Positions 5,510 to 55,630 of a DNA stretch of 64,000 nucleotides are shown one piece after another; the stretch's first letter is position 1; each line of letters opens with the position of its first letter. This stretch comes from Escherichia coli (GTDB lineage: Bacteria > Pseudomonadota > Gammaproteobacteria > Enterobacterales > Enterobacteriaceae): NCBI RefSeq assembly GCF_013315695.1, contig NZ_CP054353.1; one strand, given 5' to 3'. The notes under the pieces were generated by a model. It was given only the letters and a program-made list of their open reading frames with translations, was not told the DNA's origin and made no database searches. The position numbers were made by a program, and so were the translations under genes.

Positions 5510-6394
5510 TTAGAAGTTGTAACCTACTACCAGGTAACCACCCCAGCCGGTAGAGCGAACGTTGAAGTTGCCGTTGCCGAAGTTCAGTTCTGCATCGTCG
5601 TTCCACTGACCACCGTCGTGCCAGTAACGAGCTACGACAGAGTAGTGCCAATGATCGTAGTTCAGAGCCAGAATATGGCTGGAAGCGATAGAGTTATTAG
5701 TACGGGTCTTAATACCGTTGATTGCGTTACCGCTGTCATCCCCTAAATCGGAACCCCAGTCGAAGTTGGTGAAGCCGATGTAGCTCAGCTGACCGCCCCA
5801 CAGATCGGTAATCGGCACAAAGTATTTAATTTTGAAACGGTAACCGTCCCACTCGTTTTCGTTCGCTGCGCCATAGTTCTGCCACTGGTATTTCGCATAG
5901 ACGTTCATGGACAGGCTCATCGGCAGGCCAGTATCGATATCGGTACCCAGACCCATGTACCAGGTGCTCTGGCGACCATCTTTATTACGACCCATGTCGT
6001 AAATGTAGTTGTTCGCGAAGTACCACTCTTTGAACGGACCAAAGCTAAGGTCAGTATTGGTCAGCTTGTCGATGGAGAAACGTGGTTCGATTTCCATAAA
6101 CAGCGGAGAACCGTGGTTCCAGATACCTTTTGCATCGGAGTTACCGCCGAAGAATACCGGCGCATCCGCATAACCATAGAAGTCGAACCAGTCTTTTTTA
6201 GCGAATGCTTCGTACTCAAGGTAGGTATCGTTGCGGATCTGCGGTCCGAAACGGGTGTGATAGCTTCCGACAACGTTAACGCTCTGGTGCCACCAGTCGG
6301 AAAGATACTGCGGTTTGTCGTTTTCAGCTGCGTTGACAGTAAAAGACGAAGAGAGCGCCAGTACCGCACCGGCTGCCAGTAATGTTTTTTTCAT
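5510..6394 (-). CDS. tsx: nucleoside-specific outer-membrane channel Tsx
   Basis: 294-aa product starting [24 protein letters not shown]; ORF track extends 16 codons further upstream. Confidence 0.95.
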
Positions 6395-6692
6395 ATGTAT
6401 GCCACTGTTTGAAAATCCCTTGCGGGAGTGAAAAAGGCGCAAATTGCGTTTCTAAATATTTCGTATACAGAGGAGCCTATTATAAAAATCATTGCTCACA
6501 AAAATATGTTTCGTTTCACAGTTCTATCATTTACGTAATCGATTGCGTTCACGTTTACACACATTCGGGCGGGGATTGTACTGACTTTCACCCTTGTTGC
6601 AAACTTTTACTATCAATCCAGGTGATGTAAGCGGAGTAACAAAATGACGGGAAAAGATGTTGCGGGACGCACAAAATCGCCCCGCTATACGT

Positions 6693-7099
6693 TTACTGCA
6701 TAACAGGTTGAATGTCGTGGATACGTACAAAGTCTAACTGTTCTACAGAAATCCCCTTTAACTGTAACGGAATATCAACATCGCTGGGGACGAGGACGCT
6801 GGCAGGGGCATTAATCAATTGATTCTGCAAATTGATTTCCTGAAAGTTGTCTATTGTTCCCTGAATTTGCCCATATTCAACAGTTCCGCTGAATGCGGGC
6901 AAGGGGTCATTCGACTCGCCCTGAATACGTAGCGTCAGGGTGGTGCCATCTGTATCATGCGTAATATTCACTAGCGACATACGTAAAGTACCGATCTGGC
7001 TTTCCAGTCTTGCCGGTGTTTTCGCTCCAGGCAGAAGGTAAACCCCACTGCTGGATTTTGCATTCAGCCTGTTTTGCTGAGTGATTTTGACGGTTTCTT
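6693..7099 (-). pseudogene. yajI: yajI lipoprotein gene, 3' (C-terminal) fragment separated from its 5' part by an IS insertion
   Basis: reading frame open from about 7127 to stop at 6693 (about 135 codons); no start or signal peptide; matching N-terminal piece found at 8851..8979. Confidence 0.75.
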
Positions 7100-7118
7100 T
7101 ATCCGGTGCGCCGTAAAA

Positions 7119-7138
7119 CCCCGTCCTTCAGGGCGGGG
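7119..7138 (+). repeat. left-end subterminal hairpin ccccg-tccttcaggg-cgggg
   Basis: 5-bp stem with 10-nt loop; same orientation and same loop as the right-end hairpin. Confidence 0.7.
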
Positions 7139-7159
7139 ATATAAGGCGCGGTTTTCCAC

Positions 7160-7590
7160 CTGACCAGGTGTTTGCTGTTGTTCAATGTATTGGCGGATGA
7201 CGGATATTGGCGCACCTCCGCAGCTACTGGCAAAATAGCCAGGACTCCACAAAACGCCTTTGTAGTAATACCTGACTGCAATATCTGGTCGATCTCGTCG
7301 CAGTCACCTACCCGATACGCCTTTGAGGCTGTTTACCAGACTGGATATCGCCAGTTTGGGAGGATAGTTAATTAACAAATGGACGTGATCTGGTTCGCCA
7401 TCCATTTCAACCAGTTCAGCTTCAAAATCAGCACATACATTTGAATAGTAAGTGCGTAGTTTTTCTGTCGCGTCATGGTCAAAAATCTGGCGTCGGTATT
7501 TGGGACAAAGACCAGGTGAACATGCATCAGGAAAACACAATGCCTTCCACGCCGGATATCGGTTTCTTTTTTCACAGACCAAAGTATCAT
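7160..7590 (-). pseudogene. tnpA: IS200/IS605 Y1 (HUH) transposase tnpA, inactivated by a frameshift and an in-frame TGA
   Basis: frame A gives ...HVHLVFVP, frame B gives CPKYRRQIF...DHVHLLINYPPK...LKGVSGR then TGA at 7304-7306, then WSPGYFASSCGGAPISVIRQYIEQQ in the same frame. Confidence 0.8.
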
Positions 7591-7597
7591 TTGACCT

Positions 7598-8806
7598 GTG
7601 AAACGATTACAGGCATTTAAATTCCAGTTAAGACCAGGTGGTCAACAGGAGTGTGAAATGAGGCGCTTCGCAGGCGCATGTCGTTTCGTTTTCAATCGTG
7701 CTCTGGCGCTTCAGAATGAGAATCATGAGGCCGGTAATAAATACATCCCTTACGGGAAAATGGCTTCCTGGCTGGTTGAGTGGAAAAACGCCACTGAAAT
7801 GCAATGGCTTAAAGATTCGCCCTCACAGCCATTGCAACAGTCACTGAAAGACCTTGAGCGGGCTTACAAAAACTTCTTCCAGAAGCGGGCTGCTTTTCCC
7901 CGATTCAAAAAGCGGGGACAGAATGATGCATTCCGCTACCCGCAGGGCGTTAAGCTCGATCAGGAAAACAGCCGTATTTTTCTGCCGAAACTTGGCTGGA
8001 TGCGCTACCGGAACAGCCGTCAGGTCACGGGTGTTGTGAAAAATGTCACTGTCAGCCAGTCCTGCGGTAAGTGGTACATCAGTATTCAGACAGAAAGTGA
8101 AGTATCCACTCCGGTTCACCCTTCAGCATCAATGGTCGGGCTGGATGCTGGCGTGGCTAAACTCGCCACGCTGTCAGATGGCACAGTCTTTGAGCCTGTA
8201 AACAGTTTTCAGAAAAACCAGAAGACGCTGGCGAGACTTCAGCGACAGTTAAGCCGCAAGGTCGAATTCAGCAATAACTGGCAGAAGCAGAAACGCAAAA
8301 TACAGCGACTGCATTCCCGTATCGCAAATATCCGCAGGGACTACCTTCACAAAGTCACAACGACCGTCAGCAAAAACCACGCAATGATAGTCATTGAGGA
8401 TTTGAAGGTCAGCAACATGTCAAAGTCAGCAGCGGGTACGGTCAGCCAGCCGGGGCGCAATGTCCGGGCAAAATCAGGTTTAAACCGTTCGATACTGGAT
8501 CAGGGCTGGTATGAAATGCGCCGCCAGCTTGAGTACAAGCAGCTCTGGCGTGGCGGTCAGGTGCTTGCTGTTCCGCCAGCGTACACAAGCCAGCGTTGCG
8601 CGTGCTGTGGTCATACAGCGAAAGAAAATCGCCTGTCACAAAGTAAATTCAGATGCCAGGCATGTGGATATACAGCGAACGCTGATGTAAATGGCGCTCG
8701 TAACATTTTAGCGGCGGGGCACGCCGTTCTTGCCTGTGGAGGGATGGTGCAGTCAGGCCGCCCGTTGAAGCAGGAACCCACCGAAATGATTCAGGCGACA
8801 GCCTGA
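7598..8806 (+). CDS. tnpB: IS605-family TnpB (OrfB), RuvC-like RNA-guided endonuclease family
   Basis: 402-aa ORF, GTG start; N-terminus resembles the ISDra2 TnpB N-terminus as I recall it; RuvC motifs [22 protein letters not shown] and CxxC...CxxC zinc finger all present. Confidence 0.92.
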
Positions 8807-8870
8807 ACGTAGCAGGGATCCACGTCCTTCAGGGCGTGGAGGATGTCAATGAGTTGCGTCATCTCCTGGT
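8650..8870 (+). ncRNA. predicted TnpB guide RNA (omega/right-end RNA) spanning the tnpB 3' end, the right-end hairpin and a flank-derived guide; not directly observed
   Basis: inferred from the known architecture of TnpB elements; right-end hairpin at 8820-8839 and intact tnpB upstream. Confidence 0.35.
8820..8839 (+). repeat. right-end subterminal hairpin ccacg-tccttcaggg-cgtgg
   Basis: 5-bp stem with 10-nt loop, 14 bp downstream of the tnpB stop. Confidence 0.7.
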
Positions 8871-8979
8871 TCAGTGTGCTGACGCTGTGTTTCATCTGCC
8901 GCACTTCGCTTTGCTGCACACAGGCGCTAAGGCTGAACAGGCTTCCCAGCAGGAGCAGTCGAAAAACGTTAGTATTCAT
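8851..8979 (-). pseudogene. yajI: yajI lipoprotein gene, 5' (N-terminal) fragment with signal peptide and lipobox
   Basis: ATG at 8979 then MNTNVFRLLLLGSLFSLSAC (lipobox LSAC); frame runs into the IS right end. Confidence 0.75.
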
Positions 8980-9093
8980 AGGTCGTCCCTTTCTCGTCGC
9001 AATTAGCCTAATGGTAGAGGGTAAAAGCAGTGAAAGCATCGATCCTTTATCTCAAAAGCGTTGCGCCTTTGTTGTATCGTCAGTTCAGGGTAA

Positions 9094-9579
<486 letters not shown>

Positions 9580-9582
9580 GCC

Positions 9583-10686
9583 GTGCAGGACGAGTATTAC
9601 ATGGCGCGGGCGCTAAAGCTGGCGCAACGAGGACGTTTTACCACGCATCCCAACCCGAATGTCGGGTGCGTCATTGTCAAAGATGGCGAAACTGTCGGTG
9701 AAGGTTACCATCAACGAGCGGGTGAACCGCATGCCGAGGTACACGCGTTGCGCATGGCCGGCGAAAAAGCCAAAGGCGCAACGGCGTATGTCACACTCGA
9801 ACCCTGTAGCCATCATGGTCGTACGCCACCGTGTTGTGATGCATTAATTGCTGCGGGCGTGGCGCGCGTGGTTGCTGCAATGCAAGACCCCAATCCGCAG
9901 GTCGCTGGGCGTGGACTTTACCGTCTACAACAGGCTGGTATTGACGTCAGCCACGGGTTGATGATGAGTGAAGCCGAGCAATTGAATAAAGGCTTTCTCA
10001 AGCGGATGCGCACCGGCTTTCCTTATATTCAGTTAAAACTTGGCGCATCGCTTGATGGCCGCACGGCGATGGCGAGCGGCGAAAGCCAGTGGATCACTTC
10101 GCCTCAGGCGCGGCGCGACGTACAACGACTGCGCGCACAAAGTCATGCCATTTTAACCAGCAGCGCCACGGTGCTGGCGGATGATCCAGCCTTAACAGTG
10201 CGTTGGTCTGAACTGGATGAACAAACTCAGGCGCTCTATCCGCAACAAAATCTCCGTCAGCCGATACGTATTGTGATTGATAGCCAAAATCGCGTGACGC
10301 CGGAACATCGCATTGTGCAGCAGCCCGGCGAAACTTGGTTCGCGCGTACTCAGGATGATTCTCGTGAGTGGCCGGAAACGGTGCGTACCTTGCTGATTCC
10401 AGAGCATAAAGGTCATCTGGATCTGGTTGTACTGATGATGCAACTGGGTAAACAGCAAATTAACAGCATCTGGGTGGAAGCGGGGCCAACGCTCGCTGGC
10501 GCATTGCTACAGGCGGGGTTAGTCGATGAGCTGATTGTCTATATCGCACCTAAACTATTAGGCAGCGACGCCCGTGGATTATGCTCGCTGCCAGGGCTTG
10601 AGAAATTAGCCGACGCCCCCCAATTTAAATTCAAAGAGATACGTCATGTAGGCCCGGATGTTTGCCTGCATTTAGTGGGTGCATGA
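9583..10686 (+). CDS. ribD: bifunctional riboflavin biosynthesis deaminase/reductase RibD
   Basis: 367-aa ORF, GTG start, deaminase motif HAEVHAL...[13 protein letters not shown]. Confidence 0.95.
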
Positions 10687-36974: not shown

Positions 36975-37005
36975 TTAACCATTCCCATACAATTAGTTAA
37001 CCAAA

Positions 37006-37040
37006 AAGGGGGGATTTTATCTCCCCTTTAATTTTTCCTC
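37006..37040 (+). terminator. candidate terminator after clpX
   Basis: gggggga / tctcccc stem followed by T-rich tract. Confidence 0.45.
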
Positions 37041-37049
37041 TATTCTCGG

Positions 37050-37080
37050 CGTTGAATGTGGGGGAAACATCCCCATATAC
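37050..37080 (+). promoter_or_regulatory. sigma-32 heat-shock promoter of lon
   Basis: TTGAAT at 37052-37057, 13-nt spacer, CCCCATAT at 37071-37078; matches the sigma-32 consensus. Confidence 0.65.
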
Positions 37081-37161
37081 TGACGTACATGTTAATAGAT
37101 GGCGTGAAGCACAGTCGTGTCATCTGATTACCTGGCGGAAATTAAACTAAGAGAGAGCTCT

Positions 37162-40188: not shown

Positions 40189-42640
<2,452 letters not shown>

Positions 42641-55516: not shown

Positions 55517-55630
55517 GGGGGCTCTGTTGGTTCTCCCGCAACGCTACTCTGTTTACCAGGTCAGGTCCGGAAGGAAGCAGCCAAGGCAGATGACGCGTGT
55601 GCCGGGATGTAGCTGGCAGGGCCCCCACCC
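55517..55630 (+). ncRNA. ffs: 4.5S RNA (signal recognition particle RNA)
   Basis: 114-nt sequence GGGGGCUCUGUUGGUUCUCCCGCAACGC...GGCAGGGCCCCCACCC recognised as E. coli 4.5S RNA, including the conserved domain IV motif. Confidence 0.95.

Follow-up and report, generated by a model that had tools for sequence, protein, structure and literature searches.

The segment at 7103-8849 (+) of the window, the whole 64-kb stretch of Escherichia coli DNA that was analysed, is, to judge from its ends and its similarity to the K-12 element, an ordinary copy of IS609 (IS200/IS605 family) inserted in yajI. Its 3′ part, at 8643-8849 or, as a core, 8703-8849, together with the first 16 bases of the flank (8850-8865), probably constitutes the omega-RNA (reRNA) gene of this copy, a reading to which we assign a probability of about 0.8. 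A preliminary description of this DNA had predicted a TnpB guide RNA whose guide is drawn from the yajI flank; at the sequence level this interpretation is supported, with slightly corrected coordinates.

Identity and boundaries of the IS609 copy

The genomic setting is the Escherichia tsx-yajI-nrdR region, with tsx at 5510-6442 (− strand), a split yajI (−), nrdR at 9130-9579 and ribD at 9583-10686. Between the two yajI pieces there are a broken tnpA (−) and a 402-residue open reading frame at 7598-8806 (+). The limits of the insertion were obtained from an empty site: yajI of E. coli 042 is uninterrupted and reads ...GTTTCTTTAT|TGAGTTGCGTC..., the same junction also being written ...GACCGTTTCTTTAT|TGAGTTGCGTCATCTCC.... 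When 7102 is joined to 8850, the YajI frame is restored without interruption, and the resulting site, TTTAT|TGAGTT, contains zero duplicated bases, that is, no target-site duplication. The E. coli 042 junction therefore defines a complete element of 1747 bp, 7103-8849, inserted without target duplication, whose right end is ...GGAGGATGTCAA, the last base being 8849. A scan of 100,044 species genomes for relatives yielded 57 related loci, and in 30-40 independent insertions in Enterobacterales the homology ends exactly after GTCAA, with unrelated flanks beyond. The annotated limits of the K-12 IS609 agree with the same boundaries. The identity to the feature “insertion sequence:IS609” of K-12 MG1655 is 98.2% over the full length (1747/1748 bp) and the termini coincide, so the element in the window is an IS609 copy; it also displays the insertion 3′ of a fixed tetranucleotide and the + strand hairpins of this IS200/IS605-family element. 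A BLAST search of the whole element against the window found a single copy, and GGAGGATCTCAA (42516-42527), considered as a second right-end terminus, was discarded as a chance near-match.

Both ends carry a subterminal hairpin. At the left end (7103-7160, +), where the hairpin is conserved in the related loci, the stem pairs 7119-7126 with 7131-7138 around a ttca loop, and AAAA (7115-7118) lies directly 5′ of its foot. The hairpin that had been noticed at 8820-8839 is real: it reads ccacgtcc-ttca-gggcgtgg, extends to 9 bp (8819-8827 with 8832-8840) closed by a UUCA tetraloop, lies on the same strand as tnpB, 13 nt past the stop codon of that gene (8804-8806), and is 90% identical to its left-end counterpart at 7119-7139. 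The spacing between hairpin and element end is 10 nt on the right and 16 nt on the left (7103-7118); equality of the left-end spacing with that of IS608 (19 nt) was rejected on this count.

Several side observations concern the immediate junction and the related loci. The 5′ fragment of yajI (8791-9039, −) crosses the junction into the right end, giving an 82-residue open reading frame in which 17 residues encoded by the IS follow the signal peptide and N-terminus of YajI; transcripts from the yajI promoter would be antisense to the scaffold's 3′ part as well as to the predicted guide. The left-end hairpin is split by other DNA in Klebsiella indica (about 2026, 570-597) and in Photorhabdus heterorhabditis (about 2374-2500); the interruption in the latter begins with CTGTCTCTTGATC, which we take to resemble an IS50-type terminal repeat, and both look like nested insertions. 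Four related loci occupy whole contigs about as long as one IS609-like element (1752 and 1753 bp for two of them) in assemblies of insect and nematode symbionts (Candidatus Erwinia dacicola, Plautia stali symbiont, Xenorhabdus). Contigs of element length are typical of collapsed multi-copy repeats, which suggests IS609-like expansions in symbiont genomes. A TnpB fragment in a 672-bp contig of an actinobacterial assembly (Herbiconiux daphne) is 87% identical to the enterobacterial TnpB described here and is probably contamination, not transfer.

The predicted omega-RNA scaffold

An omega-RNA scaffold that takes in both the tail of tnpB and the right end had been anticipated, and the comparison with a published counterpart bears this out. 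In PMC12781874, an “IS609 omega-RNA scaffold” is listed, 207 nt long and ending in GGAGGAUGUCAA. It corresponds to 8643-8849, to which it is identical at 173 of 207 positions (84%), without gaps and with the same 3′ terminus, whereas the K-12 IS609 copy matches this segment at 203 of 207. The candidate RNA thus lies on the tnpB strand, overlaps both the tnpB 3′ end and the right end, and would end its scaffold at the element boundary. The preliminary description had let the scaffold end near the 8820-8839 hairpin, which was close; the true end is 10 nt further on, at 8849, as placed by the empty site, the independent insertions and the K-12 copy.

The predicted core, 8703-8849 (+), was delineated from the identity with the published scaffold, from covariation and from sub-threshold Rfam matches. 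In the proposed fold, 8703-8708 pair with 8841-8846 in a long-range helix and 8713-8716 with 8722-8725 in a hairpin; to these are added a RAGATH-18-like k-turn hairpin at 8733-8774 (8733-8737 with 8770-8774, enclosing 8741-8748 with 8757-8763), a stem-loop at 8786-8810 (8786-8796 with 8801-8810) with a further stem outside it (8781-8782 with 8815-8816), the right-end hairpin (8819-8840) and the terminal TCAA (8846-8849), all on the + strand. The whole of this structure, right-end hairpin included, was tested for covariation on 30 distinct sequences, where 95.4% of the cells were paired as opposed to 41-49% with the partners slid, a count that includes a tenth right-end-hairpin pair (8828-8831) which is unphysical (2-nt loop), the real hairpin having 9 bp. 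Compensatory changes back the secondary structure: 9 pairs, comprising 49 cells, changed on both sides, and the covariation score was reached by none of 500 shuffles. Synonymous third-codon positions of tnpB also covary, as at columns 82/88, where Ala GCG/GCA changes together with His CAC/CAT (15 GC, 13 AU). RNAalifold recovered, unprompted, helices 4, 6 and 7 and the long-range helix, and the single-sequence fold reaches −67.6 kcal/mol (z = −2.6). The proposed long-range helix is nearly invariant and thus no more than consistent with a structure.

Since the scaffold is mostly coding sequence, its conservation is partly protein constraint; and since TnpA also uses the right-end hairpin as a DNA signal, covariation there, which could equally reflect that role, is by itself no argument for an RNA. 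Taken to the limit, these two considerations would dispense with RNA function altogether: the conservation would come from TnpB together with a single-stranded DNA hairpin and cleavage motif needed by TnpA, the right-end hairpin and TCAA being established DNA signals of Y1 transposases from the work on IS608, and most of the scaffold lying inside the tnpB frame. We consider this very improbable, given that the covarying pairs include helices 2, 4 and 6, which are situated within the frame 40-130 nt upstream of the right-end hairpin, involve synonymous positions and have no known TnpA requirement. Two parts of the scaffold, the k-turn hairpin of RAGATH-18 type and the 3′ module resembling HgcC, are moreover RNA motifs, and an IS609 scaffold with the same limits was synthesised as guide RNA (PMC12781874).

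A covariance-model search, proposed earlier as a check on the omega-RNA reading, gave matches to three TnpB-associated RNA families, all of them below the gathering score. In the permissive Rfam scan of the + strand these were HgcC (RF00062) at 8739-8862 (23.8 bits, E = 0.008; gathering 50), RAGATH-18 (RF03064) at 8733-8776 (28.1 bits; gathering 44.9) and sot0042 (RF02656) at 8679-8840 (17.5 bits; gathering 88). At the gathering score, the scan of the whole window gave no match at the locus, the only matches being far off and unrelated: the sraA sRNA at 36995-37090 (−, 106.7 bits) and the bacterial small SRP RNA at 55525-55621 (+, 68.1 bits). Whatever the threshold, none of the matching Rfam families is described as an IS605-type omega-RNA of gamma-proteobacteria. 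PMC4615843 describes HgcC and the sotRNAs as transcripts or motifs at tnpB 3′ ends with a common UUCA-tetraloop hairpin, and RAGATH-18 is the guide RNA (reRNA) of IS607 TnpBs (PMC11061315).

Among the related loci, ten from Photorhabdus, Klebsiella pneumoniae and Pantoea form a sub-family with TnpB 61-64% identical, in which the 5′ scaffold and the terminal GGGGGAGGATGTCAA are shared and the last stem-loops are swapped for a different, longer hairpin, CCCCCTCTTGAGTCACGAAGTGCGAAAGTGGGGG.

Target-adjacent motif, predicted guide and target site

The target-adjacent motif (TAM) had been expected just 5′ of the left end, around 7090-7105, and it is indeed found there: the last flank bases before the element are TTAT (7099-7102, +), or TTTAT if 7098 is included. 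All 19 independent left-end junctions have TTAY, 13 of them TTAT and 6 TTAC. As a side observation, the motif's final base varies in step with the base (A or G) immediately preceding the left-end hairpin; G stands there in 5 of the 6 TTAC elements and in none of the 13 with TTAT. In IS608, the target site is chosen by an internal DNA guide, and the covariation between motif and hairpin-foot base fits this rule by analogy. The 5′ flank of the K-12 IS609 is likewise TTTAT. The TAM of IS609 TnpB is taken as TTAT in Table S2 of PMC12781874, and TTTAT is the TAM of ISGst2 TnpB (Meers et al., 10.1101/2023.03.14.532601).

Because the right end stops at 8849, the guide would start at 8850; its predicted sequence, TGAGTTGCGTCATCTC, is made up of the 16 yajI nucleotides that adjoin the right end (8850-8865, +), or 8850-8869 if 20 nt are counted. 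Guides in characterised TnpB systems are 16-20 nt long. PMC12781874 employs 20-nt guides. In the preliminary description the guide had been located within 8840-8870, as found here, although the example given there, gagttgcgtcatctcc, was off by one, the guide beginning one base 5′ of it. The guide occupies the variable flank directly 3′ of the right end, the sequences after GTCAA being unrelated among the loci. Comparing it with the reconstructed empty site had also been proposed, and the uninterrupted yajI of E. coli 042 confirms that the guide sequence directly follows TTAT. As an observation on related loci, Photorhabdus khanii and P. thracensis have a common flank past the right end, ATGAGTAAAATGCCTTGCCA, so that their insertion is orthologous and vertically inherited. 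Beyond the guide in the window, about 25 nt past the right end, there is a weak terminator-like hairpin (8872-8887, +; CAGTGTGCTGACGCTG then TGTTTCATCT), which could provide the primary 3′ end of read-out transcripts.

Within the 64-kb window, the guide matches its own flank only, where it is preceded by TCAA instead of TTAT; since the protospacer of the occupied site follows TCAA, the occupied locus is predicted to be immune. The vacant target is common in the species. Of 5426 complete E. coli genomes, at least 1864 contain an exact copy of the 36-nt vacant site, in which TTAT is followed by the guide, and the yajI site is uninterrupted in 5084 genomes and split in about 340. The 4305 genomes matching with ≥80% query coverage were rejected as a count of yajI insertions, since the IS alone makes up 81% of the query and copies elsewhere qualify. 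The best full-length matches all have the same yajI::IS609 arrangement.

Expected activity and comparison with known systems

The two genes of the element are in very different states. The Y1 transposase gene tnpA (7160-7590, −) has become a pseudogene, its reading frame interrupted at least twice and split across three frames (open reading frames 7372-7590, 7304-7582 and 7064-7252), whereas in intact relatives it encodes 138 residues; for the same locus in strain AF3 the annotation gives a frameshift and an internal stop. This copy therefore has no functional TnpA, is non-autonomous and is unable to excise itself, which leaves its assignment to IS609 unaffected. The insQ-type tnpB (7598-8806, +; GTG start) is intact and encodes a 402-residue protein that matches the NCBIfam model guided_TnpB (“RNA-guided endonuclease TnpB family”) with 391 bits (cutoff 100) and the ISDra2 TnpB structures 8bf8/8exa (E = 1e-53). 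The RuvC triad D183, E267 and D363 and the zinc-finger CxxC pairs C334/C337 and C353/C356 are retained, and at positions invariant in 16 relatives there is no private substitution. The same asymmetry, a broken tnpA (the pseudogene yncK) beside an intact tnpB (insQ), is observed in K-12. Across the family the dN/dS of tnpB is 0.05-0.15; with respect to the AF3 copy, which is the same insertion, it is 0.57, calculated from about a dozen substitutions and compatible with relaxed constraint.

This last value, the several tnpA lesions and a simple sigma-70 scan of the + strand (7300-9150), which found no promoter-like site for tnpB or the RNA, are what would be seen if the locus were an inactive relic, a fossil insertion that knocked out yajI and in which an omega-RNA homologue and tnpB persist without useful expression. 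Such a state appears unlikely to us for a copy whose tnpB has kept its full frame and all catalytic and zinc-binding residues next to a decayed tnpA, and whose scaffold differs from that of K-12 at only 4 positions; transcripts overlapping a tnpB 3′ end are, in addition, reported in E. coli K-12 RNA-seq data (PMC4615843). Fixation in place without a working transposase could also point to domestication, either as a TldR-like RNA-guided repressor or through a read-out transcript, directed on the + strand at nrdR (start 9130), that modulates the nrdR-ribD operon, with no nuclease role; domesticated TnpB relatives do exist (PMC10705468). The intact RuvC residues, unlike those of the nuclease-dead TldR, the 98% identity to mobile-type IS609 copies at other sites, and a guide whose only match in the window lacks a TAM make this the least probable of the readings considered, with hardly any weight in our view.

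We infer that the omega-RNA exists in this strain and is transcribed, processed and loaded into TnpB to direct cleavage, and the omega-RNA reading leads to the following sequence of events. Transcription of the + strand through the tnpB 3′ end and the right end would run on into the flanking yajI sequence, since the right-end hairpin lacks the T-run of a terminator. TnpB would be bound by the structured scaffold, with the first ~16 flank nucleotides acting as guide, and would cut DNA in which the guide sequence directly follows TTAT, i.e. uninterrupted yajI. The targets would be the “donor joint” that an excision leaves behind, or else a yajI+ allele; repair with the IS-bearing copy as template would restore the insertion, and the occupied locus would be spared by the TCAA that precedes its protospacer. 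With tnpA dead, the activity would be exerted only against yajI+ DNA arising through TnpA supplied in trans or through gene transfer. The biology is that of the established TnpB–omega-RNA homing model (Meers et al., preprint 10.1101/2023.03.14.532601) on a known E. coli insertion sequence, and is already known. The TnpB of H. pylori IS608 has no interference activity in that same work, so not every TnpB is active. For the purified IS609 ortholog of PMC12781874, trans-cleavage was the only activity assayed, and the paper does not present it as a strong enzyme. A literature search on the native function of E. coli TnpB/InsQ found nothing relevant.

The locus adds a further example to a mechanism already well described and brings no conceptual change; its practical value is a precise annotation of TAM, scaffold and guide. 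The one mildly interesting angle is that the nuclease of a transposase-dead copy has stayed intact, its predicted guide matching an allele widespread in E. coli. For this immobile IS609 one might imagine a role in allele-specific homing, as a gene drive, or in keeping out incoming yajI+ DNA, a proposal that we put forward as speculative and rather doubtful. If it were true, yajI+ DNA arriving by conjugation or transduction would be cut and converted to yajI::IS609, and homing would explain why tnpB has outlived tnpA. An intact nuclease, a dead transposase and a common target allele would make the locus a convenient natural test bed for native TnpB, suited to asking whether the native E. coli protein is active and whether inheritance of the insertion is biased without transposition.

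Among known systems, the IS609 ortholog of PMC12781874 (Tables S1-S3) shares with this copy the 207-nt length, the register, the 3′ terminus and the TAM TTAT, with 86% amino-acid identity; it differs in coming from a metagenome screen, in being closest to Pantoea-type copies (L019 among our related loci, for example) and in carrying an artificial guide. The IS609 of K-12 (insQ/yncK; mobile element 1503161-1504908 of NC_000913.3) has the same ends, CCGGTG...GGAGGATGTCAA, the same TTTAT flank and a tnpA pseudogene, and its InsQ is identical to the TnpB described here at 391 of 402 positions. It is inserted at another site and therefore has a different flank-derived guide, TATCGGTTTCTGTCAG as against TGAGTTGCGTCATCTC. 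With ISDra2, whose TnpB–omega-RNA system was reportedly presented by Karvelis in 2021, and with ISGst2, the copy has in common a guide RNA made from the tnpB 3′ end and the right end, a guide given by the right flank and a TAM given by the left-flank motif, a likeness of layout; in contrast to those elements, tnpA is here divergent from tnpB and dead. Finally, the HgcC, sot0042 and RAGATH-18 families have in common with it a right-end hairpin closed by a UUCA tetraloop, GAGGAnGUCA after this hairpin, and the k-turn hairpin (CCUGUGGAG...CGUUGAAGCAGGAA), although their models derive from archaeal or IS607-type elements.
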